From NCBI GenBank assembly GCA_002269645.1, contig NIVC01001206.1:44563-108562 (forward strand): a stretch of DNA of 64,000 nt, in the 5' to 3' direction. Positions 37,804-59,570 of the stretch are shown here, piece after piece (the first letter of the stretch is position 1; every line of letters starts with the position of its first letter). The notes beneath the pieces are model-generated. The model was given only the letters and a program-made list of their open reading frames with translations, searched no databases and had not been told where the DNA came from. The translations under genes and the position numbers were made by a program. This stretch comes from Macrostomum lignano. Lineage: Eukaryota.

Positions 37804-40800
37804 ATGGTTCCGCCCTGTAACAACGGCGAAGAGTCTGGAACCGGCGGTGGCGGTACTTCCAGTCAGCTTCATCATCCTGAACCTGCGCGTCAGCCTCCCC
37901 AACTGACCATAGCCTACGGCAGCGAGACCGGTGTGGCCCAAGACGCCGCCCTGACCCTGTACAATTTTGCCCGATCTCACGGTTTAAACTGTCGCTTCGG
38001 CTCGTTAGACGAAGTCGGCATTGTTGCCTTGGAAACGGCGGCTGATTGTTTGCCTAGCAACGATCTTCGCCAGCAGCTGCTTATCGCGGCTTGTTCAACC
38101 ACGGGACAGGGCGATCCGCCAGCCAATATGCGCAAGTTCTGGCGCCTGGCTATGAGCAGGCGGCTGACTCAAGGCTGTCTCCATGGCAACGGGAGCAGCC
38201 AGAGCGGTGAGTGTCTTGTCGATGCTTTATACCGGTGTCTTACCTGTGATTATCCCGGGTTTCTTACTTGTGATTATCCCAGTGTCTTACCTGTGATTAT
38301 CCTGGTGTCTTACTTGTGCTTATCCCAGTGTCTTACCTGTGATTATCCCGGGTTTCTTACTTGTGATTATCCCAGTGTCTTACCTGTGATTATCCTGGTG
38401 TCTTACTTGTGCTTATCCCAGTGTCTTACCTGTGCTCAACCGGAGTGTCTTACCTGTGCTTTATCCCGGGTGTCTTACCTGCGCTTATCCCGGTGTCTTA
38501 CTTGTGATCATCCCAGTGTCTTACCTGTGCTCAACCGGAGTGTCTTACCTGTGCTTTATCCCGGGTGTCTTACCTGCGCTTATCCCGGTGTCTTACCTGT
38601 GATTATCCCAGTGTCTTACCTGTGCTCAACCGGAGTGTCTTACCTGTGCTTTATCCCGGGTGTCTTACCTGCGCTTATCCCGGTGTCTTACCTGTGATTA
38701 TCCCAGTGTCTTACCTGTGCTCAACCGGAGTGTCTTACCTGTGCTTTATCCCGGGTGTCTTACCTGCGCTTATCCCGGTGTCTTACCTGGGATTAGCCCG
38801 GGTGTCTTACCTGTGATTATTCCAACTGTCTTACCTGTGATTACCCGGGTGTCTTACCTGTGCTTATCCCGGTGGCTTACCTGTGATTAGCTCGGGTGTC
38901 TTACCTGTGCTTATCCCGGGTGTCGTACCTGTGATAACCCCGGGTGTCTTACCTGCGCTTAAATTGTGCTTGTTTCGGTTGTCTCACCTGTGCTTTTCGA
39001 TTCTCCTACCTGGTAATCCCGGTGTCTTATCGAATGTATCCCAAAGGCATTCGGTATTCCAAGCTCTGTGAGTTACATTACAGCTATTTTCGCAATCTAA
39101 CAAAGCGTTAACCTTAACTTTATCCTCATTCTCAAAATTCCACAACAGCCAATAATCCCCATGGCAACGGTGACTCAGCCACGGCTCGACTCCGTTTCTG
39201 TCTAATCGGTTTCGGTGACTCCAGTTACCTGCAGTACAATTTCGTAGCCAAGAAACTGCATCGCCGTTTATGCCTGCTGGGCGCCAATTCAGCCTGCCCC
39301 CTGGCTCTGGCCAACGATCAGGACGAACTGGGACCCGACCAGGCCTTCCTGCCCTTCGCTGAGACAGTGTCCGCTCTGCTGACCGACACTTTTAGCGTCC
39401 GTTGCGCCTGCGTTGGCAGCTGTCTTGACGCTCCTCTGCCGCCGCTCTATCGCGTTGAGGCTATTGCAGCTGAGAAATCTACAGATTCTACTCATACTAC
39501 TGCCGCTAATCAAGTAGTAGTAGTAGTAGGTGCAGATGGTCCGAGATTGCCGCCGCCAGAAACTGGTTATCAATTGGCTCGCATTGTTGCTAATAAGCGG
39601 GTTACCGCGGAGGATCATTTTCAGGTGAGGATTTCAACTTTCCCATTCCCATTTATCTCACCTTAGTTGCCATTTATCTCACCTTAGTTGCCATTTATCT
39701 CATCCTAAGATTACATCTATCTCACCCTTGCATTCCATTTATCTCACCTTAGTTGCCATTTATCTCATCCTAAGATTACATCTATCTCACCCTTGTATTC
39801 CATCTATCTCACCTTAGTTGACTTTTATCTCACCCTTAGATTCCATCCATCTTACCCTTGTATTCAATTTTCACCTTAGTTGCCATTTATCTCACCCTTA
39901 GATTTCATCTATCCCACCCTTGTATTCGATTTATCTCACCCTTAGATTCCATTTATCTCATTCTTAGATTCCATTTATCTCATTCTTAGATTCCATCTAT
40001 CTCATTCTTAGATTCCATCTATCTCATTCTTAGATTCCATCTATCTCATTCTTAGATTCCATCTATCGCATTCTTAGATTCCATCTATCTCATTCTTAGA
40101 TTCCATCTATCTCATTCTTAGATTCCATCTATCTCATTCTTAGATTCCATCTATCTTATTCTTAGACTCCATCTATCTCATTCTTAGATTCCATCTATCT
40201 CATTCTTAGATTCCATCTATCTCATTCTTAGATTCCATCTATCTCATTCTTAGATTCCATCTATCTCATTCTTAGATTCCATCTATCTCATTCTTAGATT
40301 CCATCTATCTCATTCTTAGATTCCATCTATCTCATTCTTAGACTCCATCTATCTCATTCTTAGATTCCATCTATCTCATTCTTAGATTCCATCTATCTCA
40401 TTCTTAGATTCCATCTATCTCATTCTTAGATTCCATTTATCATTCTGCCGCCCTCAGCTTTCCCTTATCCCATCATCTTTAACTGTCACCCTCCCACCAG
40501 TCTACCTCACCCTTCGCCCTCCATCTCAACCCTCTCGCCGCAGGACACCAGACTCATCACGCTGAGTCCGGCGCCGACAAGCGCTGAATCGCCGTCGCCC
40601 ACCCTCTGGTCCCCGTTCCAACCCGGGGACGTTCTCCAAGTCTTGCCCAGCAACAGCCAATCCGCTGTCTCCAGCCTGCTCAGCACCTTGTCGCACCTGG
40701 ACCCGGAGACTCGCCTGCGGGTGTCGCAGTCCGATCCGAACTTCCCGCCGCCGCCCGACCTGCCGCCGGCTGGCCCGACACTGCGCTGGCTGCTAACTAA

Positions 40801-41779
40801 CTATTTCGACATCAGCTGCGTGCCTCGCCGTAGCTTCTTCGAAACTCTTCGCCGAATCGCTATGTGCATCGGCGATGAGGTCGCGACTACAACTGAGGAA
40901 GACTCGAGCCGGCTCGACATGGAAATTGAACGCCTAGGCGAGTTTGTACGAGATGTAGACGAGCTGGCCGCCTATTGCAACCGGCCTCGCCGTACTGTAG
41001 CCGAAACTCTGCGCGACTTCCCCGTGTCGGCTTCTCGCATTCGATTGAGTCGATTATTCGACCTGTTGAGACCGATTCAACCGCGAAGCTTCTCAATTGC
41101 CAGTCTGGGCCAGTCGGGCTGCTCAAGTCTCGACCTGCTTGTTGCTGTGGTTCGCTACAAATCCAAGCTCATGTCCGAACCGAGGCTGGGCCTGTGCTCA
41201 AACTATCTGGCCAGCGCTGGGCCTGGCAGTGTCGTCACTGTCCGGTTGCAGCGCGGCACTCTACGGGTGCCGCCAGTCGATGTGCCGCTGGTTCTGGTCG
41301 GTCCCGGCACGGGGATCGCGCCGTTTCGAGGTCTGGTCCAGCAGCGACACGGGGTCGTCAACGGGCAGGGCGATGAGGCACCGGCTGCTGGCTCGGCCCA
41401 GACTCTCGTGTTCTTCGGCTGCCGGCATCCGGAGAAAGATTTCTACTTCCAGTCCGACTGGCTGGAGTGGTCTCGTCTGTGGCCGGACAAGTTCCAATTG
41501 GCTACGGCGTTTTCTCGGCCAACTTCGGACAGCGGCCAGCAGACAAAATGCTACGTGCAAGATCGAATTCGCGAGCTGGGTGCCGACGTTGCTAAGCTAC
41601 TGTTGCTAGGCGGCGGCGCGGTTATTGTTGCCGGCAGCTCCGGCGCCATGCCGCGCGAGGTTCTATCAGCTGTGCAGGCTGCTCTGACTGTGCACGGCGG
41701 TTTTGATGAAGCTGAGGCAGCTGGGATGCTTGCAGAGTGGCAAAGGACTGGCCGGTACCAGATGGAGACTTGGTCTTGA
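37804..41779 (+). CDS. NDOR1: NADPH-dependent diflavin oxidoreductase 1 (NDOR1/Tah18), 3 exons
   Basis: Exons 37804-38206, 39149 (or 39179)-39624, 40544-41779. Flavodoxin motifs YGSETGVAQD, STTGQGDPPANM, GFGDSSY.QYNFVAKKLHRRL; FAD/NADPH motifs PRSFSIAS, GLCSNYL, VGPGTGIAPFR, FFGCRH, YVQD; C-terminal ETWS. Confidence 0.93.
38232..38960. repeat. ~23-bp minisatellite (GTGTCTTACCTGTGATTATCCC), NDOR1 intron 1
   Basis: Direct tandem repetition with higher-order blocks. Confidence 0.9.
39645..40440. repeat. 22-bp minisatellite (TTAGATTCCATCTATCTCATTC), NDOR1 intron 2
   Basis: Direct. Confidence 0.9.
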
Positions 41780-43567: not shown

Positions 43568-45205
43568 TTACATAGGATTAAAGCCTCCATCTCCTTCATC
43601 AACATAGTCCAGCTGCACAGCAGTGGTTGTCAAGTGGAAGACATCAATTTCGGATGCATCTCCGCTGCAGACCAACAACTCGAAGCCAGCAGCTGACTGT
43701 TCGAGTCCAGCATTGTCGCAGGCTGATGTTAGCTGTAGAATCTCCATGCCAGCTGGTGCTCGGTGGTTTAGCTCAGCTGCACTGATCAGCAGTTCGAATC
43801 CCGTGCTGCTAACACCTGATTCTTGTTCGTCCTGGTTATTGAGCAGCCTAGAATATGGCAAACAGAAGATACCAGAGGATGGTGTGGCAATGTACACCTG
43901 ATCACCTGCGGGGCTGACTGCGGCAGCTGTGAAAGACGATGGCCAAGATGGTGTTGCTGCTTCTGCTGCGGCTGTGTGCAGTTCTGGTGTCAGCTCGCGA
44001 ATTGGTACCAGTTTGTTGCTACCGGCGAATATCCGGATCGGTCCTAATCGATCGGTAAGCAAAAGCGCTGGAAGTGACTGAAATGTTGATGTAAAAGAAG
44101 AGGGCGGTAATCATCAAAGGAATCGGGGCGGCTATTATCAAAGTGATCTTTGTTCCAATCATACATGAATCGGAAGATGGCAATCGTAAAAAGATATTGT
44201 GGCGGCAATCATCAAAGGAATCGGGAATGCAATCATTAAAGGAATCGCGGGCAGAAATCATCAAAGGAATCGGGGGCGGAAATCATCAAAGGAATCGGGG
44301 GCGGAAATCATCAAAGGAATCGGGGGCGGAAATCATCAAGGGTATCAGGGCGGAAATTATTAAAGCGATTTTTGTGCCAATTGTAACTAAATCGAGGGTG
44401 GCAATCATCAAAGGAATCTTGGCGGCAATCATCAAAGGGATTTTGGCGACAATCATCAAAGGGATCTTGGCGGCAATCATCAAAGGGATCGGGAAGCGAA
44501 TTCATCAAAGGAATTGGGGTAATTGGGGGCGGCAATTATCAAAGGAATCGGGCGGCAATCATCAAAGGAATAGGGGAGCGGCAATCATCAACGGAATAGG
44601 GGAGCGGCAATCATCAACGGAATCAGGATGGTAATCATTAAAGGAATCCTTGACGGCAAGCATCAAATGAATCATGAAGCGGCAATTATCAAAGGAATCG
44701 GGGAGCGGCAATTATCAAAGGAATCGTGAAGCGACAATTATCAAAGGAATCGGGGAGCGGCAATTATCAAAGGAATCGGGGAGCGGCAATTATTAAAGGA
44801 ATCGTGAAGCGGCAATTATCAAAGGAATCGTGAAGCGGCAATTATCAAAGGAATCGGGGAGCGGCAATCATCTAAGGAATCGCGGAGCGGAAATCATCGA
44901 ATTAATTATAGAAAATCCGATGATATTTTCTACGAAAGCAAAGCGGTACTGCTGACTCAGTGCTTACCTGACCAGTCGCACCGCTCACCCAGCACATAGA
45001 GTGCAACCCACGGCCGAAAGGACCCAGCGTTTGCAGAGGTGCAAACTTTTCCAACCCATATACAAAGACGCAGCCAAGACGCGACTCCAGCACCAGCAGA
45101 CGATCGCCATTCAAGTCCAGGCAGACATCCGTGGCGTCTCGAAACCCGTCAAACCCGGCAGACACCTGTCAGGTCGCACTGCAGCACGGACTTCCCGTTG
45201 CTAAG
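43568..45205 (-). pseudogene. 3' part of the TRIM-NHL-like gene (beta-propeller/NHL-like repeats), downstream of the LTR insertion
   Basis: Exon remnant 44968-45205 (SNGKSVLQCDLTG.. then FDGFRDATDVCLDLNGDRLLVLESRLGCVFVY, frameshift at ~45155, donor GTAAGC) and last exon 43568-44077 (AAAVSPAGDQVYIAT.., stop TAA). Confidence 0.7.
44105..44895. repeat. ~25-bp minisatellite (ATCATCAAAGGAATCGGGGGCGGAA), intronic
   Basis: Direct tandem repetition with variants. Confidence 0.9.
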
Positions 45206-45912
45206 TGTTGTGTCTCGGCCTAATGGCCGCTGGACGGGTCAAGGTTCGGGCCCTCCCCGCCTGAGACACCCCGGTCCCAGCCCTCACCCCGGCTATTCCT
45301 ACCCTGTCTCGCTCGGTTCGGCGAGAGTTCGCCTGACCGAACACCCTGGGATCGGCGAGAGTTCACCGTTCCCAGGTCCCTGCAGATCCCGGCCCCACGC
45401 GGCAACCCAGAAGAACGAAAGCTCGAGCTCACCTCCTCTTGATATATCGAGTTACTAACGAAGCGTTTATTGGCCCGAAGCAGTATTGGCACGCGAAGGC
45501 AGAGGTACGCCGTTGAACGCAAAAACAGTAAGAACGAAGCGGACACCAATAGAGAGCAACGTGGAGCGCAGCCCGCTCAGGGCTAGCATTTAAATAATAC
45601 ACAAAAAAAGGGGAAAGGGGTGGGGCAGACTGGAGAGGGCGAGCCAAACCCTGGGGCCCAGCCGGCTTATCAACCAGCCAGCCAATACGAGCAGCCCCAG
45701 GGTGAGGCGGGCAACGAGGGAGGGGGGTAGGGTCGGCACCCAGATTGGACAGAGATTGGGCCGGGGGCTGGGTGCAAAGGGCTAGGCCAGGGTTGAGACT
45801 TACGCCTCTCACAAACCCTGGCCCGGGCGCGAGACGGGGGACGGGGCGGGGTGGCATGAAAACTGAAAACAAAAGTACGAGTACATACACACTGGAAGGG
45901 CGCAGCCCAACA
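45206..45912 (-). repeat. 3' LTR (707 bp)
   Basis: TG...CA termini; ~99% identical to 53155-53856; AATAAA at 45466-45471 (minus) and a TATTTAAA box near 45590. Confidence 0.95.
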
Positions 45913-45924
45913 TCCTCCCCCTCC
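45913..45924 (-). other. Polypurine tract GGAGGGGGAGGA
   Basis: Purine run directly abutting the 3' LTR on the element strand. Confidence 0.9.
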
Positions 45925-46152: not shown

Positions 46153-47829
46153 CTACAATCGGCCAAAAAATCTACTACAGTTGGTCGCAAACAGTCGAGT
46201 CCAGTACCTGCGATCACATTCACTGTCCGCTAGGGCTTCCGGCACGAACTTGATTGCTGTCGGGTCCTTGGGGTCTCCACCAAACGGTGCGGCCGATGTC
46301 ACTAGCAGGCGCTGCCGCGGGAGACGCTTAGCCCGTTGGACCGCTCGCGGGGATCCTCGGCACCGAGCGGACACCTCGAAGAAGACCCCGTGGCACTTGC
46401 TCACCAGCGCGGCCTCGACGGCCTCCGGCAAGTCCAGGTCCTCGGCCAGCATGACGCTCATCGCTTGAAACTCCGGCTGCCGGAGGAATCCTAGGGCGAC
46501 CGCCCAGGCAGGTTCGCCGCCTTCAACTCGGAACAAAACCGGCAGGCCGAACTCCTTGGCAAGCAAGAACTGCTCCATCGCCGCCGTTAACTGGTCCTGG
46601 CGCTGCGACCTCTCAGCGTCCCAATTGAGCTCGACTTCGCCGACCGCCACGACACGCGGCCAGCTACCCGCTAGAAATCGTCGTACATCGTCTCGCAGCG
46701 ATGGCCACCACGGTGCAGCACTGGCCTTCAGGCCCAGGGCGAACACGATCCGTCGGTCTTGCAGCAGTGGTCGGACAACGGGACATTCTAGACGCAGGCA
46801 GTACGGCGAGTTTACAGCCGCTAGACATCGACGCACGCCACGAAGGTCCTCGGGCTGAATCGACCGGCCCAGCCTCGTTAGGTATGCCTTTGCATCGACG
46901 AGACGCTTAGCCGAGCTGACCTTGCGCTGATTCGGGTCGTCACGGGGGGAGACCTCCTGGACCGTGTCGGCCGGTCGTACTTGCTCGGGGTCGACACCCG
47001 TTAACTCTTCGGTCGCCAAGTCGCGCTGGGCCGTCAGCGGAGTCTGCGAAAGGTGCGGCCCGTCACTCCCCTCCTCCGGGCGCCGCGCGAGGCCAGGATC
47101 CACTAAGAGAGACAGACCCCGGAGCCTCCCCAACAAGGGACCCCCCAACTCACACAGCTCAAAACCCCGCACAGCCAACAACACGCACTCAAACGCCGCC
47201 TGCAGCACCGAAGGCGGGACCCTCCGACACCTCCCGGAACCACCACCAGAACCTCTCTTCCGCCCATACTGATTGCACAGAAACGACACAGACACTGCTA
47301 AGAATCTAGACAACTGCTCAGGCACACTCACACCAGCCCCATCAAGAAACCTCGCCACCTCCTGAACCACCAGGCAAGCTCCTTCACTATCCCCAGCCCT
47401 CAACCGCGCCAGCAGCGCACCCCTCAGCCGCCTACACTCAGCTAGCGCAGCCGGAGCCAATAACTCGGCTGGGATCTCCGCGTGAACTGGAGCTTCCCCT
47501 GCGGCGCTTCCCTTAAGACTAGCCAAAGCTAACCTGACCTGCTCGGGCAACTCAACGTCAGGGGGAGGATTGAAAAAGTAGGCGTACTTTAACACCCCTT
47601 GACACGCTGCCTCTCCAACCCGATCGTATACTTCCCGAAACACTGGGTCAGATAAAACGCACATCGCCATCACGTCTCGCTGAGACTCCGGAGACTCTAC
47701 CTCGGCAGGACAGACGCGGGGCCGCTTTGAGTACAGACGACTACACGCTGCCTCAATCTCCGCAGAGTTAGCAGTCCGACCCACGCCTAACACGCCATAC
47801 AAATCAGTCGGTGTCGTTGGCGACGACAT
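46153..47829 (-). CDS. Retrotransposon accessory ORF3: J-domain-like (no HPD) + helical region + TatD-like domain with degenerate metal site (~558 aa)
   Basis: Uninterrupted ORF from ATG 47829. DLYGVLGV.RTA..EI..A..L...VLSDP..R..YDR.G matches the DnaJ pattern. LVDAKAYL / GLKA / VVAVGEVELN / LPVLFR / RLLVTSAAP / NCSRFF align to TatD LIDSHCHL / G.HP / VAIGEIGLD / LP...H / RLL.ETDAP / NA..LF. Confidence 0.8.
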   Translation of the reverse strand: MSSPTTPTDLYGVLGVGRTANSAEIEAACSRLYSKRPRVCPAEVESPESQRDVMAMCVLSDPVFREVYDRVGEAACQGVLKYAYFFNPPPDVELPEQVRLALASLKGSAAGEAPVHAEIPAELLAPAALAECRRLRGALLARLRAGDSEGACLVVQEVARFLDGAGVSVPEQLSRFLAVSVSFLCNQYGRKRGSGGGSGRCRRVPPSVLQAAFECVLLAVRGFELCELGGPLLGRLRGLSLLVDPGLARRPEEGSDGPHLSQTPLTAQRDLATEELTGVDPEQVRPADTVQEVSPRDDPNQRKVSSAKRLVDAKAYLTRLGRSIQPEDLRGVRRCLAAVNSPYCLRLECPVVRPLLQDRRIVFALGLKASAAPWWPSLRDDVRRFLAGSWPRVVAVGEVELNWDAERSQRQDQLTAAMEQFLLAKEFGLPVLFRVEGGEPAWAVALGFLRQPEFQAMSVMLAEDLDLPEAVEAALVSKCHGVFFEVSARCRGSPRAVQRAKRLPRQRLLVTSAAPFGGDPKDPTAIKFVPEALADSECDRRYWTRLFATNCSRFFGRL

Positions 47830-48167
47830 GGTCCTCCTGCAATGATGACATTTAAACCCAATCACTACCTATGCCTTGCGGACTAGCAACTGTGACCCTG
47901 GCCTGACCCATCCCATGACATGTTTACTTTACAATACGATTGAGAACGCTTCTTGCCTAGCATATTTTGTAATTTTAATACATTTAATGTTTTTTATGTG
48001 CTTTCATGCGTTCCATTTTATGAATTTTTTTGTGCTTTGGGGTTGTATCATTTTTTTTCATTTTAGGTTATTTTAGGCTTTCTACCATAGACAACAGCGT
48101 GGAGGCATTAATACAAGTGCATATTAAAAATCAATTTTGGACGACCGCCTTGTGAGCCCACTGCGAA

Positions 48168-51100
48168 TTAACGATACAGTACCGGATTCCCGTAATACGC
48201 TGGGGGCACACCCCGACGCTCGCGCAGTCTTCGCGGAGACACGGCCGGCGCTGCTGGAGCCACCGGTGCGCATGGCGCAACTGGCGTTCCCGGCCCTACT
48301 ATCCCATGCCGAGGCCCAACGGCAACTGGTGGCACCACATACGAGTAAAACTCCTCCTCCTCCTCAAGTTCCGGCTCTGTAGTCGCCAGCCCCGCGGGCT
48401 CCTGTCTGCACCCTGCCGGCTCAGGCGGATGCGCCGACCGGCGCTGCACTGCCGTACGCCTATTCATCAACCTGAACTGCTCAGGCCGCTCGGGTACTTT
48501 TCGCAAATTATTATAATGCACTATTTTGCTCTTTCCCCTATTGGCGTGCTTTACCCGGTAATTCAAATCGGATATCTTCTCTAACACCTTCGCCGGCCCC
48601 TTCCAATTGCAATGGAACTTGGCTGCCTCCCCTGCCTGCAGCGCAGGCGAGTATTCTAGGACGGCATCCCCAACTTCTATGGCCGGGCCTCGCACCCTTG
48701 AGTCGTACAGCACTTTCTGTTTCCTCTGGTACTGCTGCAGGTTGGTCCGCACCTGCGAATGAGCCTCAGCCAGACTATTACCTAATGACTGAACATACGC
48801 CGGAGCACTGGCAGGAATGGACTCAGGCAAGGTTCCATGTCCACTGGAAGCCGCATCTCCCTGGCGTACAGCATGTAGTACGGGGTGTACCCCGTGCCTC
48901 TGTGAACGCTGCTACGGTACGCCATGAGAGACGGGTGGATCAGATCCTCCCAGTCTCCTTCGCCCACCGACTCACTCATCCTGCACTTGATCATTGACTT
49001 CAACGTCTTATTGAAACTCTCAGCCTGACCATCAGCCATCGGGTGATAGGAGGACGTTCTGCATTTCTTAACGGCAAGCAACCGACACAACTGCTTCATC
49101 AAAGCCGACTCAAAATTGGTGCCCTTATCGGTGACTAGAAATTCAGGACAACCAAAGTGCGCAATCCAGTGATCAAAAATCGCTCGCGCCACCGTCGGGG
49201 CTCGCTGATTCGACAAGGGCACCGCCACCGGCCACTTAGTAAAAGAATCCTGGATTGTCAGCACGAATCGATTGCCACCTCTGGACTTGGGCAACGGCCC
49301 GACAATGTCACTCATGATCCTCTGGAAAGCTCCTTCCGAGCAGATTGGCTGCAAAGGCGCCCGGTTGCTGCGCCCAGGCTTCGCCTTCGCACAGTGGACA
49401 CAGCTCCGGCAATACTCTTCCACGGAACGACTCAGCCCCGGCCACCAGTATCTCGCCTTCACTTTCTCTTGTGTCTTCCTAACCCCAAGGTGCCCTCCTG
49501 CAACCCCATCATGAAGCTCACTGAGCACTTTCGGCAGCAAAGCCGGCGGCAGCAAGATCTTTTTCTGGCACCCACTCCCGGGACTCTGAAAATACAACAG
49601 ATCAGACTCTACTCTTATCAGCTGCCGTTGTGCCCACAGCACACGCTCCTCCCACGACATCACTCTAGGCGCACTGGGGTTCGAACCCGGGTCCAGGGCA
49701 TAGGAGCGGACAGCTGCAAGCTTCTTCTCGGCCACTTGCGCCTGCTGGACTTCCTTCGAAGACAGCCCACTGCCAAACACCGCGTTCACTACTGGCACAT
49801 TCTCGCTAAACTGGCAGCTAGGGCAGCTCTCATGGCCAGCGTGTTTTCGGTACTTGCGAGACAGCGAATCAGCGTTGCCGTGCTCCTTGCCTGGCCTGTG
49901 AATGATCTCAAAGTCGAAGTTCTGGAGCGACTCAAGCCACCTTGCGCACTGACCCTCTACGTCCTTCAGACTGGCTAGCCACTGCAAAGCTTTGTGGTCT
50001 GAACGAACAGTGAACTTTCTACCTAACAAATAGTACCTATACTTTTTGACGAAGTGCACGACGGCAAGCAACTCTAACCTGGTGGTGCAATAATTTTTCT
50101 CCGCCGCATGAATCATCCTAGACCCGTAAGCGATCACCTTCTCACGGCCATCTGCTTGACGCTGTGACAGGACGGCTCCCAGCCCGACGCGCGAACTGGC
50201 GTCCGTGTCGAGGATGAACTCCCCGGCACCAGGCGAAAAATCCGGGAATGCCATCACATTCGGTGAACACAAAGCGTCTTTCAGCCTGCAAAACGAACTC
50301 TCCTCTTCACTACCCCACTCAAACTTCACTCCGTCTGCGGTTAACCTATACAGCGGCGCTGCAATCTCCGAAAACTGCGGGATAAATGACTGATAGTAGG
50401 CGCACGTACCCAGGAATGCCTGCACCTTCTTGGCGCTACATGGCCTCGGCCAATTCTGGATCTCCTCGCACTTGCTCGGGTCCGTTGCGATCCCCTCCTG
50501 AGAGACGATGTGGCCCAGAAACTTCACCCGCTCTGCGAGGAACACACACTTGGCGGGCTTCAGCTTGACATTGGCATCCCTCAGGCACTGGAAAACATGC
50601 TTCAATCGCTCGAGATGCTGACCCACCGACTTGGCGAACACGACTATATCGTCAAAGTACACCAGGCACTCCTTCCAGTTAACCTCAGACAGGGCCATAG
50701 ACATTAGCCTGGCGAACGTGCGGGAGCATTGCGCAAGCCAAAACTCATGCACTTCCAGGCGAACTGACCCCTGTTGGGTACCACGAACGCCGTTTTCAAC
50801 TGGTCCTTCGGCTCAATCGGGCACTGATGATAGCCGGAGGCCAGATCCATCGTCGAGAAAACACAGTTCCCTCCTAGCGCATCAAGCGTCTCGTCCATCC
50901 GCGGCGGTGGGTAAGGATCTGGCACTGTGACCTCGTTAAGGCGCCGATAGTCTAGACACAACCTCAAGCTACCGTCGGCCTTTTTAACCGGCACGATCGG
51001 GCTCGCCCACGGAGAGTAGCAGGGATAGATGCGATCCTGCTGCAACAACTCATCAACCTGCTTATCAATTTCCTCCTTCCAGCGCGGTGGAATCCTACGC

Positions 51101-52104
51101 GCGGGCTGACTTACTGGCTTGGCGTTGCCGGTGTCAATCTCATGCGCCATCAAGTGTGACTGTCCCAACTCCGAGCTATCCCTGGCAAAGACATCACGAT
51201 TCCGAGCCATCAGGCGCTCAAACTCGTGCTTCTCATCGCCCGTCAGGCCACATCCTCCCCACTCCTTGACATCGCTGAGGGGGTTCCAGTCGTCTCGGAC
51301 ACTCTCCACCGAGTTCACCTGCCACCCAGCTGGCTGCTGGGCCGCCACTGGGGAGAACCAACCAATTCGGCTTCCCTTCCTTAATGACAGACTGCATCCT
51401 GACGTGTTCAACACCCTGACAGCCAAGCGACCGTCCCCGTCAGGCATCTGTACCGATCTGGCCACCATCTGCTCGTTACTCACTCTCCTCTCAGACTCCA
51501 CAATGCCTAGGAACTGAACCCCAGAGGGAACCCTTCTCTGCAACCTGACGTGCACCACCTTCTCTTGACCTGCATTGAACTGCTCAGGCTGACTCAGCAC
51601 CAGACGGCAAAGACGCGGCTTATCTGCTGATAAGCGAAACGGATACACACAGGATGCAGTCTGCAAGCAATTCCTAGCAAAGTCAATCGCCATCCCGTGT
51701 CTCACGAAAAAGTCAGTGCCCAGAATACATGCCACAGCCAGTTCCTCGACCACAGCGAACTCGTGCAAAAACTCGGTGTCCCCAACAGAAAACTTCATCG
51801 TCACCATTCCATGTACAGCAATCGGTTCCCCATTGGCAGCGAAAACGGAAAAATTCGGCAAATTCGGCAATAAGTCAATGTCGGCTTTTTTAGACTTCAG
51901 GAAACGGTTGCTTAACAACGACACGGTGGCCCCGCTGTCAAGCAGACATGCAATCGGGGGCCCAAACCTAAACTGTGCATCCACATAGCCCAGTCCCTGC
52001 CGACTCAGCACACTCTGGGACAAGGCCGCGGCCCCCGATGCACCCGGATTCACTGACGCTGGGGCCCGGACGGGTGCCCCGGCCGAGCCCCCAATCCGTT
52101 TCCC
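48168..52104 (-). CDS. pol: Gypsy pol polyprotein (protease, RT, RNase H, integrase); two 1-nt frameshifts (~50720, ~48830)
   Basis: LLDSGAT (PR); PWASPIVPVKK, RLCLDYRRLN, YFDDIVVF (RT); DTDAS, TRLELLAV, SDHKAL (RH); H..GH..C..C, SDIVGP, TDKGTNF, AESFNK (IN); W.GP and SH3-like tail; no chromodomain. Confidence 0.95.
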
Positions 52105-53030
52105 GAACCCGACTGGTCCCACCGACGATAGCAGCGGTTGCGCATGTGCCCTGACTGGCCACACTCCCGGCAGACCACTGCATTACGGCACCGAGCCGTA
52201 GTATGCCCTGTCTGCAGGCACCGACCACACTGCCTCTGCTGCTGACTCTGCTCAGGGGCTCGATGCTGCAAGCTCACTTTTGGCTGCTCAGACCTTGCTG
52301 TCGCCATCGGCGCAGTGGGCGCTGCAGCACTTGCTTTTAGCTGAGCCACTTCCGCTTTCAGAGCTGCTATCTCGGCGGCTGCCCTGGACTCCTGGCTGTT
52401 GCCAGCCGCTGCGGCCTGACCCCCCACCATGTGCACAGCTCGCTTGCCCTCGGGCTCCATCAGAGCCAACGATGCCCTCACTTGACGCACCCGCCTAATA
52501 GCGTCCTGGAGCGTCTCTGGCGCTTGCAGCAGCACGCTCTCCAGCACCCGGGCTGGCACCCGAATCCCCTTCAAAAACCTGTCTTTCACCAACTCTTCTC
52601 GCTGGGCCGCTGGCAGCATTGGGTACGATTTTCTCATAAGCTCCTTGAGCACGTCTGCATATTCTTCAATGGGCTCGCCATCTTTCTGATTCCTACTCTG
52701 GAACTCGGTCTTGTAATCTTGAGCAGTCCTATTCTCATCAAACCTAGCCTCTAGCTGCTCAACAAACTCATCATACGGCAAATCATCGGCCAACTCAAGA
52801 TTCGCAACAGCCTTAAAAGCAGTATTAAAGTCAAGCAGACTGAGCAGCGCCTGCTTGCGCTGATCCCCTAGAATATGAGCCGCCTCACAATACCCTGTGA
52901 ATTGTTGCATCCAAAGGGCAAAGTCCTGTGTGGGCACGTACTTATTTGGCCTCGGCACCCGCTGTGCCACATTAAGTTCGTTTTGCAGACGCGCCGTCAG
53001 GGCGTCAATCAGATCGTCTAAATTGGCCAT
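52050..53030 (-). CDS. gag: Gypsy gag with two CCHC zinc knuckles
   Basis: ATG at 53030; capsid-like Q..GE.IEEY..L..L motif; CGRCLQTGHTTARC and CRECGQSGHMRNRC. Confidence 0.92.
   Translation of the reverse strand: MANLDDLIDALTARLQNELNVAQRVPRPNKYVPTQDFALWMQQFTGYCEAAHILGDQRKQALLSLLDFNTAFKAVANLELADDLPYDEFVEQLEARFDENRTAQDYKTEFQSRNQKDGEPIEEYADVLKELMRKSYPMLPAAQREELVKDRFLKGIRVPARVLESVLLQAPETLQDAIRRVRQVRASLALMEPEGKRAVHMVGGQAAAAGNSQESRAAAEIAALKAEVAQLKASAAAPTAPMATARSEQPKVSLQHRAPEQSQQQRQCGRCLQTGHTTARCRNAVVCRECGQSGHMRNRCYRRWDQSGSGNGLGARPGHPSGPQRQ
52098..52104 (-). promoter_or_regulatory. -1 ribosomal frameshift slippery heptamer G GGA AAC (gag-pol)
   Basis: X XXY YYZ in the gag frame; a -1 shift enters the pol frame. 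A GC stem (GGGGCTC...GGGCCCC) begins ~6 nt downstream. Confidence 0.8.
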
Positions 53031-53134: not shown

Positions 53135-53152
53135 ATCCTGGTCACGGCACCA
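53135..53152 (-). other. Primer-binding site complementary to the tRNA-His 3' end
   Basis: TGGTGCCGTGACCAGGAT 2 nt inside the 5' LTR. It matches the invertebrate tRNA-His(GUG) end ATCCTGGTCACGGCA+CCA, recalled from the known tRNA sequence. Confidence 0.85.
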
Positions 53153-53154
53153 CT

Positions 53155-53856
53155 TGTTGTGTCTCGGCCTAATGGCCGCTGGACGGGTCAAGGTTCGGGC
53201 CCTCCCCGCCTGAGACACCCCGGTCCCAGCCCTCACCCCGGCTATTCCTACCCTGTCTCGCTCGGTTCGGCGAGAGTTCGCCTGACCGAACACCCTGGGA
53301 TCGGCGAGAGTTCACCGTTCCCAGGTCCCTGCAGATCCCGGCCCCACGCGGCAACCCAGAAGAACGAAAGCTCGAGCTCACCTCCTCTTGATATATCGAG
53401 TTACTAACGAAGCGTTTATTGGCCCGAAGCAGTATTGGCACGCGAAGGCAGAGGTACGCCGTGAACGCAAAAACAGTAAGAACGAAGCGGACACCAATAG
53501 AGAGCAACGTGGAGCGCAGCCCGCTCAGGGCTAGCATTTAAATAATACACAAAAAAAGGGGAGGGGTGGGGCAGACTGGAGACGGCGAGCCAAACCCTGG
53601 GGCCCAGCCGGCTTATCAACCAGCCAGCCAATACGAGCAGCCCCAGGGTGAGGCGGGCAACGAGGGAGGGGGGGGGTCGGCACCCAGATTGGACAGAGAT
53701 TGGGCCGGGGGCTGGGTGCAAAGGGCTAGGCCAGGGTTGAGACTTACGCCTCTCACAAACCCTGGCCCGGGCGCGAGACGGGGGACGGGGCGGGGTGGCA
53801 TGAAAACTGAAAACAAAAGTACGAGTACATACACACTGGAAGGGCGCAGCCCAACA
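53155..53856 (-). repeat. 5' LTR (702 bp)
   Basis: TG...CA; differs from the other LTR at 3 small indel sites and 1 substitution that I could find. Confidence 0.95.
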
Positions 53857-55552
53857 TAAGCAACAGCTGCTGCTTGACCGGCCAGTAGGCCAGACGTTCG
53901 ACAAGGTGAGGCGAAGCGGCCGTCAGCTCAACAGTTGCTAGGTGGCAACCAGAGACTGACTCGAGCACGAGCAGTTGGCGAGAGTTGGGCGACTTGCAGT
54001 AGAGCACAGTGCTGGGCAACGGTCGCCATGGAGACCGGTTGGATGCCGGGAGACTGCCAGCTTCCAGCGACTCAAAATCCACAGCTGTTTGGCTCTGAAA
54101 TTGCCAAGTTTTTGCTAAAAACTTCTCAAACATGAAAATCTCAGTCTTAGCTGTGCGCACATATGCTAGAATAACACTAGATGGGCCACTAAGGCACATA
54201 ACGCTCGTATACTTAGTAAAACAGCTTTCTACTTTCAGTTCAGTAGCGATGAAGAATGCATAAGCTATTTTATAAGAAAACAAAGGTTTAGAAGCCCTTG
54301 AAGCTTGCAAGCGCAGGCAACTTGCTAATTGGTTCAGCAATAATGTAGATTGGCGAGTTCACTGAAATGTACATGGCAGCTTTAGGCTGGAACAACTGAG
54401 GAAGGTAATAAAATTGGGGGGGGGGGACAGGGGTTGAGTTCTGTGTGGAGTTTGAGGGTTTAAGCTTAGGGGAATAAGAGCCTTTATAACCCTTGGCTTT
54501 AAAATATACTAAAATGCTTCCGTTTAACTTACTACTGAACTGAAAGTAGCTTGCATGCAAATGTGCTGAGTGGCCCATCTAGTTATTCTAGTATCTGTGG
54601 ATCAAGCTACATTCTACAATTATATGTAACTAAAAGTCCAACCCCAAATGCAAGGGAGTGTACATGCCTGACGATTAGAACATATCCGTGTTCCTGCTCA
54701 GAGGTCAGTGGGATGCACACGACTGCTATGATTCAATGCGCATTGAACTTAATTAGCCACAAAACTACTTCAAGTAGTTTTAAAACTCACGGCATTCTCT
54801 TCCTCATCCTGAGTCGGCCATCTCAGCCCAGTTTTCGGTCCTCGCCACATCGGCCTGCGCCCATGCCGAGTCTGATCCCCGAGGGTCACCACAGTCAGAT
54901 CCGTTGCCCTGACCGATTCGAATTTGCGTCGCCTCTCAGTCTTATGATATCGCCGAAGGGTCCCGGACGGATGTCCACCGCGAAAGCCTCTGTACAGGTA
55001 TTCAGCTTCGTCCAACAGATTGGCAAATTCAACTTCCAGGAGGTGCTTGTTCAGCTGAGGTGGCGGCGGTGCCAGCTGTTGAGTCAGCGACGATTCAGCA
55101 ACGGTGACAGCAGCCATGGCGGCCTCCTCAGTAGTTGCTAGGCGATCCCGAGCCGCAGCGGCTGCTCTCAGGTCACCGGAGTCCAGAGCGGCTCTGAGCT
55201 GATCAGCTGACTGTTGCATAGCAGTTGCCATGGTCTCCGACAGAGCCGGCCTGCTTGCGGCTCTCAGGCGGGTCCTGCGCTGCTCAGCCACCTGTTGCAG
55301 TCTGTCAATCAGCGAGTCCCAGGCTGCCAGGGCGGCCTCCTGTCGCTCGGCGACTTGCAAGATGGCGGAGGCTGACTGCAGCTGACGCTGGCAGGCCGTC
55401 TGCAATGTAAAATATTATACAATTGATATTGCAGGAGGGCTGCGGGGTGTACAGCCAATTGGTGCAGACAATATTATATGCAGCTCGACTTGTTGAATTA
55501 CTTTACCGGGATTGCACGGGTTTACAGAAATGATCTGAAAGTCGCACAAAAG

Positions 55553-58222
55553 TGGCGCCAGCTACAGAGGGGGGCGCCAGCTACAGGGGGTGCCAGCTAC
55601 AGAGGGGGCGCCAGCTACAGAGGGTGCCAGCTACAGAGGGGGCGCCAGCTACCTAGGGGGCGCCAGCTACAAAAGGGGCGCCAGCTACAGAGGGGGCGCC
55701 AGCTACAGAGGGGGCGCCAGCTACAAAAGGGGCGCCAGCTACAGAGGGGGCGCCAGCTACAGAGGGGGCGCCAGCTACAGAGGGGGCGCCAGCTACAAAA
55801 GGGGCGCCAGCTACAGAGGGAGCGCCAGCTACCTAGGGGGCACCAGCTACAGAGGGGCGCCAGCTACAGAGGGGGCGCCAGCTACAGAGGGGGCGCCAGC
55901 TACAAAAGGGGCGCCAGCTACAGAGGGGGTGCCAGCTACAGAGGGGGCGCCAGCTACAAAAGGGGCGCCAGCTACAAAGGGGGCGCCAGCTACAGAGGGG
56001 GCGCCAGCTACAAAAGGGGCGCCAGCTACAGAAGGGGCGCCAGCTACCTAGGGGGCACCAGCTACAGAGGGGCGCCAGGTACAGAGGGGGCGCCAGCTAC
56101 CTAGGGGGCGCCAGCTACAAAAGGGGCGCCAGCTACAGAGGGGGCGCCAGCTACAGAGGGGGCGCCAGCTACAAAAGGGGCGCCAGCTACAAAAGGGGCG
56201 CCAGCTACAGAGGGGGCGCCAGCTACAGAGGGGGCGCCAGCTACAAAAGGGGCGCCAGCTACAAAAGGGGCGCCAGCTACAGAGGGGGCGCCAGCTACAG
56301 AGGGGGCGCCATGCTACAGAGGGGGCGCCAGCTACAAAAGTGGCGCCAGCTACAGAGGGGGCGCCAGCTACAGAGGGTGCCAGCTACAGAGGGGGCGCCA
56401 GCTACAAAAGGGGCGCCAGCTACAGAGGGGGCGCCAGCTACAAAAGGGGCGCCAGCTACAGAGGGGGCGCCAGCTACAAAAGGGGCGCCATGCTACAGAG
56501 GGGGCGCCAGCTACAAAAGTGGCGCCAGCTACAGAGGGAGCGCCAGCTACAGGGGGTGCCAGCTACAGGGGGGGGGGCGCCAGCTACAGAGGGTGCCAGC
56601 TACAGAGGGGGCGCCAGCTACAGAGGGTGCCAGCTACAAAGGGGGCGCCAGCTACAGAGGGGGCGCCAGCTACAAAAGGGGCGCCAGCTACAAAGGGGGC
56701 GCCAGCTACAGAGGGGGCGCCAGCTACAAAAGGGGCGCCAGCTACAGAAGGGGCGCCAGCTACCTAGGGGGCACCAGCTACAGAGGGGCGCCAGGTACAG
56801 AGGGGGCGCCAGCTACCTAGGGGGCGCCAGCTACAAAAAGGGCGCCAGCTACAGTGGGGGCGCCAGCTACAGAGGGGGCGCCAGCTACAAAAGGGGCGCC
56901 AGCTACAAAAGGGGCGCCAGCTACAGAGGGGGCGCCAGCTACAGAGGGGGCGCCAGCTACAAAAGGGGCGCCAGCTACAAAAGGGGCGCCAGCTACAGAG
57001 GGGGCGCCAGCTACAGAGGGGGCGCCATGCTACAGAGGGGGCGCCAGCTACAAAAGTGGCGCCAGCTACAGAGGGGGCGCCAGCTACAAAAGGGGCGCCA
57101 GCTACAGAGGGGGCGCCAGCTACAAAAGGGGCGCCAGCTACAGAGGGGGCGCCAGCTACAGAGGGGGCGCCATGCTACAGAGGGGGCGCCAGCTACAAAA
57201 GTGGCGCCAGCTACAGAGGGAGCGCCAGCTACAGGGGGTGCCAGCTACAGGGGGGGCGCCAGCTACAGAGGGTGCCAGCTACAGAGGGGGCGCCAGCTAC
57301 AAAAGGGGCGCCAGCTACAAAGGGGGCGCCAGCTACAGAGGGGGCGCCAGCTACAAAAGGGGCGCCAGCTACAAAGCGGGCGCCAGCTACAGAGGGGGCG
57401 CCAGCTACAGAGGGGCGCCAGGTACAGAGGGGGCGCCAGCTACCTAGGGGGCGCCAGCTACAAAAGGGGCGCCAGCTACAGAGGGGGCGCCAGCTACAGA
57501 GGGGGCGCCAGCTACAAAAGGGGCGCCAGCTACAGAGGGGGCGCCAGCTACAGAGGGGGCGCCAGCTACAGAGGGGGCGCCAGCTACAAAAGGGGCGCCA
57601 GCTACAGAGGGAGCGCCAGCTACCTAGGGGGCACCAGCTACAGAGGGGCGCCAGCTACAGAGGGGGCGCCAGCTACAGAGGGGGCGCCAGCTACAAAAGG
57701 GGCGCCAGCTACAGAGGGGGCGCCAGCTACAGAGGGGGCGCCAGCTACAAAAGGGGCGCCAGCTACAGAGGGGGCGCCAGCTACCTAGGGGGCACCAGCT
57801 ACAGAGGGGCGCCAGGTACAGAGGGGGCGCCAGCTACAGAGGGGGCGCCAGCTACAAAAGGGGCACCAGCTACAAAAGGGGCGCCAGCTACAGAGGGGCG
57901 CCAGTTACAAAAGGGGCGCCAGCTACAAAAGGGGCGCCAGCTACAAAAGGGGCGCCAGCTACAGAGGGTGCCAGCTACAAAAGGGGCGCCAGCTACAGAG
58001 GGTGCCAGCTACAAAAGGGGCGCCAGCTACAGAGGGTGCCAGCTACAAAAGGGGCGCCAGCTACAGAGGGTGCCAGCTACCTAGGAGGGCGCCAGCTACG
58101 GAGGGGGCGCCAGCTACAGAGGGTGCCAGCTACCTAGGAGGGCGCCAGCTACGGAGGGGGTGCCAGCTACAAAGAGGCGCCAGCTACAAAAGGGGCGCCA
58201 GCTACAAAAGGGGCGCCAGCTG
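55553..58222. repeat. 18-19-bp GC-rich minisatellite (GGCGCCAGCTACAGAGGG), ~2.7 kb, intronic
   Basis: Direct tandem repetition; it is the source of many repetitive ORFs. Confidence 0.95.
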
Positions 58223-58751
58223 CAGAGGGAATGTTAAGTCGACAGTAAATTCTCGCTCTCCGCAATCCGGTTCTACTACTACTAAGAGTAGCTGACTCCC
58301 CTGAAAGTGAATCCGATGCTCGCTAAAGTGCAAGTCGCACAAGTCGAGACCGCAGTGACCGCAACGGCTGAACGCACGCTTCTGGCAGGTGTCGCCCTCG
58401 AGTCCAACTGCCTTACAGTTGAGTTGAATTGGCTGTTCAGTCTCTTCTCGAGCCTGCACCTGCTGCTGTCGGCGATGCAGCTGACGGACAGCCTCGATGA
58501 GGTCGCGCATGTGGCTGTTCTCGACTGGCCGACTCAGCCGGTCCCGGCACTGCGGGCAGCGGGCCGACTGATGCATGGGGCTCGAGTTCAGGACGCCCTG
58601 GTAGCATGCCCGACACAGGGTGTGATGGTTGGAGCACACGTAGCAGGGGTCCACAAATAAGTCCAAGCAGAGCGGGCACTTCAGGTCCTGGTGATCGTCT
58701 AGGGCTGGCTGGTCTGAGCTGCTGGACTGAGAGTCTGCTTGGGGTGGCGTG

Positions 58752-59570
<819 letters not shown>

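Follow-up and report, generated by a model that had tools for sequence, protein, structure and literature searches.

The question raised by this locus is what a Gypsy-type retrotransposon does with an additional gene that occupies the position of an envelope gene. The window analysed here is a stretch of 64,000 nucleotides (64 kb) of Macrostomum lignano contig NIVC01001206.1, and it contains a complete Ty3/Gypsy element on its minus strand, from 53856 to 45206 (Table 1). Downstream of gag lies pol, which encodes protease, reverse transcriptase, RNase H and integrase in that order, as in Ty3/Gypsy elements. The two LTRs begin with TG and end with CA, and their near identity (702 of 708 alignment columns, with one substitution and five gap columns), together with the 4 bp CTTA target duplication flanking them, indicates that the insertion is young. 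The pol gene of the window copy is split over three frames by changes near 50700-50800 and 48800-48900; some sibling copies have it uninterrupted, in a single frame that reaches up to ~1340 codons. A preliminary description of the locus had reported an uninterrupted reading frame of ~558 codons between the pol stop codon and the polypurine tract, and this is confirmed: ORF3 is a single open frame from ATG to stop, starting 339 nt past the end of pol (48168), ending 229 nt before the polypurine tract, and lying inside both LTRs. In a DNA-like read run the depth over ORF3 is 142-160, against 18-19 at a flanking host locus, a rough excess of ~8-fold.

Table 1. Features of the element and its accessory gene in the window.
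Feature	Position	Strand	Remark
Target-site duplication, 5' copy	53857..53860	minus	CTTA
5' LTR	53155..53856	minus	TG...CA
TATA-like box; AATAAA	53544; 53420	minus	both within the 5' LTR
Predicted splice donor in LTR	53376..53382	minus	last exon base 53382; inferred
Primer-binding site	53135..53152	minus	complementary to host tRNA-His(GUG) gene
gag	52050..53030	minus	Retrotrans_gag E 7.8e-5 and zinc knuckle, below cut-offs
pol	48168..52182	minus	protease-RT-RNase H-integrase-SH3
Predicted splice acceptor	47836..47845	minus	YAG ending at 47837, 7 nt before ORF3 ATG; inferred
ORF3, 558-aa accessory protein (P0001)	46153..47829	minus	
Degenerate J-domain	47623..47805	minus	residues 9-69, no HPD
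Five-helix domain	47086..47457	minus	residues 125-248
TatD-like domain	46156..46917	minus	residues 305-558
Polypurine tract	45913..45924	minus	
3' LTR	45206..45912	minus	
Target-site duplication, 3' copy	45202..45205	minus	CTTA

Of 120 candidates in a genome search with the window protein, 78 were scored; the search yielded 60 matches, including 22 loci of the family to which the window copy belongs (family A). In 10 of these ORF3 is uninterrupted over its full length, and in the other 12 it is broken; pol lies upstream in 21 and a 3' LTR downstream in 19, so that ORF3 travels with the element, as had been proposed. When compared with two copies 96% identical to it, the whole family-A ORF3 has dN/dS values of 0.31 (bootstrap interval 0.18-0.53) and 0.27 (0.15-0.43), and this purifying selection contradicts the decay that the preliminary description had named as the alternative. 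For the TatD-like part alone the values are 0.37 and 0.32, and both intervals extend across 1; for the J part alone this holds in one of the two pairs. Because of this copy context and a dN/dS of about 0.3, we have little doubt that the family-A ORF3 is a real, selected accessory protein carried by the element. It is not an envelope protein of the retroviral type: no 19-residue window of the hydropathy scan exceeds 1.49 and the maximum at the N-terminus is 0.46, so neither the signal peptide nor the transmembrane anchor of such a protein is evident, in agreement with the earlier view of a non-env cargo. A simple scan of the family-A protein found no clear basic nuclear localization pattern.

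The preliminary description divided ORF3 into a J-domain and a TatD nuclease domain, and both homologies hold, with qualifications as to score. On the whole family-A protein the Pfam DnaJ profile matches residues 9-69 (E 2.5e-3, 18.3 bits) and the TatD profile residues 359-535 (E 5.5e-5, 23.1 bits); neither score reaches the curated cut-off. The J-domain cut out alone scores 23.7 bits, still below cut-off, and a search of the PDB matches DnaJ proteins at E 6e-5; the TatD-like domain cut out alone scores 25.9 bits (cut-off 27). The relatives in sister families pass the cut-offs, with 48-65 bits for DnaJ and 33.9 and 31.9 bits for TatD in families B and C, and this secures both assignments for family A. 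A profile of the TatD-like domain matches 12 PDB sequences, all of the TatD family (best YjjV and YcfH, E 6e-9 to 9e-9), and 132 database sequences, of which all 120 listed are ordinary TatD proteins; Atlas assigns TatD at 0.93. Among longer proteins only P0003 matched this domain, which is weak evidence. A word-seeded search with P0001 gave no match, and a full HMMER search gave 12: three near-identical UniRef gene models named M. lignano, a 166-aa Logan fragment (P0004) with 51% identity to P0001, six TatD-like proteins and two J-domain proteins. Neither this search nor those with the TatD-domain profile established an element-borne relative of ORF3 outside M. lignano.

The two-module layout itself does not stand, in that a third folded domain at residues ~125-248 was overlooked. 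These residues align across eight families (A to H) at 12-28% identity, and an AlphaFold model built from nine sequences predicts a fold of five helices (pLDDT 88, pTM 0.81); the single-sequence model of the whole ORF3 has a pLDDT of 39 and was not used for fold searches. The five-helix domain has no Pfam family, no Atlas match and no PDB sequence match under E 0.01, and Foldseek searches of the PDB and BFVD returned nothing at E <= 0.001. Thus, of the profile and structure searches suggested earlier, DnaJ and TatD are recovered by their profiles and the modelled helical domain is without a specific sequence or structure match, which shows neither a new fold nor a new family. The best VIA match, to the CarH cap (Z 8.7, rmsd 2.8, 81 residues aligned), falls in the range of common helical bundles.

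The broader context comes from searches with the window protein, a family B protein, the integrase and a family F protein, from which 30 further stretches were picked by hand. Within M. lignano, one Gypsy clade has ORF3 as its lineage-wide accessory gene. Seven other families (B to H) carry a J-domain, an acidic linker and the same helical domain after pol, and the gene lies directly 3' of pol in B and its subfamily B', C, D, E, F, G and H; two of the loci (L029 and L030) lack their own pol. B/B' and C share the full arrangement of J-domain, linker, helical domain and TatD-like domain, at ~33-39% identity to A, D to H have no TatD, and in H a chromodomain is present in the linker (Chromo 47.7 bits), the only case among the eight families. 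Copies are numerous, with 21 full-length genome matches for F, about 14 for D and about 19 for H, the last in frames of 331-333 codons, although the assembly may be redundant. The linkers of B and of F and G are only 18-21% identical apart from a motif, G-x-x-x-I-S-D-D, which is kept in B, C, F and G, loose in D and E, and absent from A and H. Its hydrophobic-ISDD core is, we presume, akin to a SUMO-interacting motif; a complex prediction for host SUMO with the family B linker scored 0.19.

In an integrase tree of 20 rows (L039 was too short and was left out) families A, B and C group with a set of elements designated I at 98/96, inside the J-bearing group, and the J-only families are grouped weakly (82/64). 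The J-domain and helix gene thus occurs throughout the group, and TatD in a single branch of it. The I elements (L049-L051) are the closest pol relatives of family A, with 71-82% integrase identity, and show no ORF3 homologue; ORF3 is also absent from two more distant outgroup elements. Young B-type copies (L034, with LTRs 99.9% identical) have lost the J-domain, the helix domain and half of TatD. From the I elements and these truncated copies it follows that ORF3 is dispensable in cis.

These comparisons bear on whether ORF3 might be a neutral passenger, that is, captured host sequence in decay, or else an envelope-like transmission protein. The breaks in 12 of 22 family-A loci, a stop or frameshift in every B and C copy examined, and the envelope-like position would all accord with this. 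However, dN/dS well under 1 across families largely refutes it, the gene is retained across elements whose integrases are 50-70% identical, no transmembrane segment is present, and 24 of the 38 indels in the 18 family-A copies compared fall in runs of a single base, as sequencing errors often do. We regard the passenger or envelope-like explanation as highly improbable.

The preliminary description read the HPD tripeptide of the J-domain as RPR. HPD is indeed missing from the family-A J-domain in every register, but the register is ambiguous and the site reads RPR, PRV or CPA according to the alignment. Its sequence places the window protein among pseudo (type IV-like) J-proteins, and as the loss of HPD is established to have this effect, it should not stimulate the ATPase of Hsp70. 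The J-domain is followed by a ~30-residue extension conserved in the clade. The motif LxCxE was absent from the 10 frames scanned. Both modules had further been described as looking inactivated, but an inactivation of both by design is not supported by the comparison of families: each of B to H has one or more copies with an intact HPD, which is altered in family A as well as in certain decayed copies (B', D2). Since the family-A J-domain also lies on a long branch (1.54, as compared with 0.10-0.14 for B and C), it is the exception, and on the sequences compared the loss of HPD is peculiar to family A and not part of a common design.

At the TatD-like site, the five motif changes given in the preliminary description are all in the sequence, and the strand-6 histidine was missing from its list. 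In family A the HxH pair is replaced by K314 and Y316, the GxHP histidine by K368, the strand-5 histidine by R434, and the ETD position reads T511/A513; the strand-6 histidine corresponds, in a tentative alignment, to Glu463. Five of the six ligand positions have therefore changed together with the GxHP histidine, whereas each TatD motif is kept in 110-117 of the 120 canonical matches listed, and because of this concerted change the family-A domain is very probably inactive as a nuclease. The earlier verdict of a catalytically dead TatD is accordingly probable, with the reservation that the bridging glutamate (Glu398) is kept and is invariant in all nine aligned rows. Families A, B and C have all lost most of the ligands. 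The observation that basic residues (K, K and R) have taken the place of ligands is accurate for family A, but Lys314 corresponds to a histidine in B and C, where the first histidine of HxH is kept and the sequence DAH points to the HxH group, and three acidic residues are also found at the family-A site (Glu398, Glu400 and tentatively Glu463). The second glutamate of the resulting GExEL (Glu400 in A) and the tentative third on strand 6 are present in A, B, C and P0004, and GExEL occurs in none of the 120 canonical matches listed.

The acidic residues raise the alternative that the domain is a remodelled but active hydrolase, for example in AP-site or 3'-end processing. The invariant bridging glutamate, the additional glutamates and the histidine kept in B and C could be read in this way, and in TATDN1 the bridging glutamate is the only ligand whose alanine substitution cut both activities, single histidine or aspartate substitutions leaving the enzyme largely active (PMC10085689). 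The simultaneous change of so many positions in family A weighs against it, as does a 30-fold fall in the activities of TATDN3, which is of the HxH class, on loss of its aspartate (same source), and we consider a remodelled hydrolase improbable. In the comparison of B with C the TatD-like domain has a dN/dS of 0.14 (the J and helical domains each 0.10; dS is near saturation), so that selection on this domain continued beyond the changes at its site. A further property common to the three families is charge: the TatD-like domain has a net charge of +9, +6 and +6 in A, B and C, whereas for the 120 canonical matches listed the median is -9 and the highest value +1; this charge fits a nucleic-acid binder and is in keeping with the metal-free binder suggested earlier. 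GC-rich codons may contribute to this charge.

The preliminary description also offered a decoy, in which a doubly dead protein antagonises host TatD nucleases or Hsp70. It is true that family A is conserved although HPD and most ligands are gone, and HPD-less J-proteins that inhibit their partners exist, such as Pam16 (as described in PMC13254874). Yet no direct support for a decoy emerged: the TatD-bearing sisters B and C, like D to H, have an intact HPD, pieces of the host TATDN1-like and TATDN3-like genes align poorly with the TatD-like domain (best 28.9 bits), and the literature matches listed give no link of TatD to the restriction of retrotransposons. The decoy thus appears less probable still than an active hydrolase. 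The spacing of the TatD-like domain may resemble that of animal TATDN2; no TATDN2-like host gene or third host TatD paralogue was found in an exon-wise search, which can miss one.

How ORF3 is expressed can be approached from the sequences around its start. A YAG trinucleotide lies 1-31 nt before the J core in all ten families or subfamilies examined, adjoining the ATG in F, G and H; in E a single nucleotide separates the two, and the background frequency of YAG is 0.01-0.05 per base. Among the LTRs of A to E, those of A, B, B', C and D contain a GTRAG donor at position ~475-540, and that of E has a comparable site. No ATG lies close to the start in B, B' and C; there the predicted acceptor exon begins with TG and the LTR donors end in A, so that splicing would itself create the start codon; the donors of B and B' both end in A although their LTRs differ. 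D2 also lacks its own ATG. A UniRef gene model (P0005), itself a prediction, joins the LTR donor to the ORF3 acceptor. Four of 24 read runs were examined, none of which is on record as RNA; three from three different studies (X1, X3 and X9) skip a host intron that a DNA-like run (X17) does not, and are guessed on this basis to be RNA. Contigs of all three cover ORF3 and cross the acceptor unbroken, and DNA can be present in these runs. The LTR-ORF3 junction is not among the joints listed (15 of 33), and contigs drop minor forms; we infer the splice and think it likely that ORF3 is made from a spliced subgenomic mRNA in the manner of env. Contig ends near 53384-53387 were considered as evidence of splicing and rejected, as they fit a sequence variant between copies. 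Spliced leaders that end in AUG are known, and trans-splicing of such a leader was also set aside, as it would not preserve the reading frame in B and C. No canonical heat-shock element was found in 14 LTR or leader stretches scanned, which contain several partial ones.

A plausible scenario can then be drawn for the clade. A donor in the LTR would be spliced to the acceptor at the start of ORF3 to give the subgenomic mRNA, and its product would follow a common design of an HPD-containing J-domain, an acidic linker, the five-helix domain and an exchangeable reader, an arrangement directly visible in the sequences, with roles that are conjectural. The reader would be a chromodomain in H and, in A, B and C, a basic pseudo-nuclease derived from TatD; with the linker, which often contains the ISDD motif that may interact with SUMO, it could guide the protein to the element, onto chromatin or nucleic acid. 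There the J-domain would summon host Hsp70 and a repressive complex would be loosened, a form of counter-silencing modelled on the class C J-proteins of viruses. Family A is a derived form that lost HPD and the ISDD motif and kept the helical and TatD-like domains under selection, and is probably a nucleic-acid-binding scaffold that no longer stimulates the Hsp70 ATPase.

We give a probability of about 40% to the reading of ORF3 as an adaptor that directs Hsp70 for nuclear targeting or counter-silencing. It is favoured because there is precedent, class C J-proteins bringing Hsp70 to targets through their other domains (PMC10410713) and viruses encoding J-proteins of which an HPD-less mimic still recruits Hsc70 to nuclear sites (PMC13254874), and because the chromodomain, the basic pseudo-nuclease and the ISDD linker are suitable partner modules. 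Against counter-silencing are the dispensability of ORF3 in cis, the restriction of the chromodomain to one family in eight, and the absence of ISDD from A and H. The most serious competitor is a replication chaperone that brings Hsp70 to the Gag/Pol particle of the element itself or to its reverse transcription complex, the TatD-like domain binding and shielding element RNA or cDNA. Some reverse-transcribing elements depend on Hsp40 and Hsp70, and the shared architecture, the selection data and the basic TatD-like domain would suit such a role; but the chromodomain and the conserved linker motif point to chromatin and close relatives replicate without ORF3 in cis, which leaves the chaperone unlikely. 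The Hsp70-directing adaptor can be extended, somewhat more tentatively than the role itself, to a clade of animal Gypsy elements with its own Hsp70-recruiting counter-silencing proteins, made from a spliced mRNA in the env position and built on a new helical core with swappable readers, in which family A dropped the chaperone arm and retained only the TatD pseudo-nuclease reader.

The more general finding is therefore the HPD-intact family that stands behind the window gene. To our knowledge, element-encoded counter-defence is well established in viruses, has been described in a few plant DNA transposons and is thinly documented for animal LTR retrotransposons. The eight related families form a natural series in which HPD is present or lost, the reader is TatD-like, a chromodomain or lacking, and ORF3 itself may be lost; with the RNAi and transgenesis available in this flatworm, the question of Hsp70 hijack or anti-silencing thereby becomes testable by ordinary assays. 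Two further additions come with the series, namely a conserved TatD pseudo-enzyme and a five-helix domain for which no specific match is known.

A catalogue of M. lignano LTR retrotransposons assigns 129 of 137 families to Ty3/Mdg4 and, in the parts available, annotates core domains only (PMC12801592); the elements described here are probably among them. Its main text contains none of the terms 'TatD', 'DnaJ', 'ORF' and 'splic', and its supplements do not contain 'TatD'. 'DnaJ' occurs 13 times in the expression table of that study, where the one row inspected is a canonical DnaJ gene cluster. TatD and DnaJ are likewise absent from PMC6338049, PMC6431247 and bioRxiv 10.1101/2024.12.18.629116, and searches of the open literature found no TatD or J-domain cargo in retrotransposons. 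A non-env ORF3 with a nuclease-type domain is already known, and it is the J-domain and TatD cargo in retrotransposons for which these searches found no description.

Among known systems, the TatD/TATDN hydrolases (PF01026; YcfH, YjjV, TATDN1-3) share homology with the C-terminus of ORF3 over the whole domain, and differ from it in that most ligands are changed in ORF3, GExG has become GExE, and the domain is net basic. VANC of the VANDAL elements is an anti-silencing protein encoded by plant DNA transposons, and the likeness to it is one of proposed role. The kind of gene is known because the LTR elements Juno and Vesta of bdelloid rotifers carry a non-env ORF3 (a DEDDy exonuclease or a GDSL esterase) in the same position between pol and the 3' LTR (this and the following points from PMC5408684). 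The rotifer ORF3s encode family-specific enzymatic domains, including a 3'-5' exonuclease-type cargo that recalls TatD, and are typically made from spliced messages, like the mRNA predicted here; their folds are different, their catalytic residues are reported to be intact whereas the M. lignano TatD ligands are mostly lost, and neither 'TatD' nor 'DnaJ' occurs in PMC5408684. The J-proteins of viruses (polyomavirus T antigens, phage Rki and HSV-1 ICP22) provide the second parallel, of a mobile genome with its own class C J-protein (PMC13254874). Here, however, the carrier is an LTR retrotransposon, LxCxE is absent and the partner domains are others; the string 'transpos' does not occur in PMC13254874 or in a survey of ~280,000 J-proteins (PMC10410713). 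ICP22 shows that even a mimic lacking HPD is able to bring Hsc70 to nuclear sites (PMC13254874).

The family A Ty3/Gypsy element seems to have inserted into an exon of a host gene, pieces of which flank it. The host intron is skipped in RNA-like sequencing runs. A weak NHL match lies beyond the 3' LTR of the element and a weak RING match lies upstream of it, and from these sequence matches the interrupted gene may be of the RING/B-box/NHL type. One read contig follows the host exon up to 53857 and then departs from the element sequence, which suggests that an allele without the insertion, or a paralogue, is present.

A MITE-like repeat of very high copy number, whose ends are inverted, also lies in the intron; its read depth exceeds 10,000 in two runs. 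Elsewhere in the window is a frame of the diflavin reductase type, in which FAD- and NAD-binding domains each score above the Pfam cut-off. A host SUMO gene without introns is found in seven copies with identical scores, several of them arranged as inverted pairs.

Coordinates of host and element features
Feature	Sequence	Position	Strand
Host-gene piece	Window	44902-45205	-
Host-gene piece	Window	53857-54094	-
Host-gene piece	Window	54791-55414	-
Host-gene piece	Window	58205-58900	-
Host intron	Window	54095-54790	
Intronic repeat	Window	54162-54795	
Reductase frame	Window	40430-41779	+
Host SUMO gene	L060	1471-1728	+
Family E fusion frame	L043	1861-4701	-
247-codon frame	L049	1703-2446	-
Family H ORF3	L055	1003-1986	-

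The TatD-like domain of family A has a relative in a 166 aa Logan fragment (P0004), with 51% identity and the same losses of TatD ligands. The fragment is absent from the matches of the Macrostomum lignano genome and so possibly derives from another species.

In young B-type copies (L034, with an LTR pair 99.86% identical, and matches on C150, C2475 and C109), a deletion has taken away the J and helical domains along with half of the TatD-like domain, and the match boundaries are the same at several of these loci. Because the internal sequences of B and its subfamily B' (L031 and L032 compared with L034) are near-identical and their LTRs very different, sequence comparison suggests an exchange of LTRs; the predicted LTR splice donor ends in A in both.

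A deletion in a family E copy joins the RT/RNase H frame in frame to the ORF3 J-domain. In families D and F (L041, L044, L052) the stretch that separates ORF3 from the polypurine tract holds long GC-rich tandem repeats. The closest pol relatives of the window element carry at the ORF3 position a 247-codon frame with no Pfam or ORF3 match. In family H, ORF3 includes a chromodomain outside the integrase (Pfam 47.7 bits), placed between the J-domain and the helical domain, in which the third aromatic cage position, judged by eye, is apparently altered.
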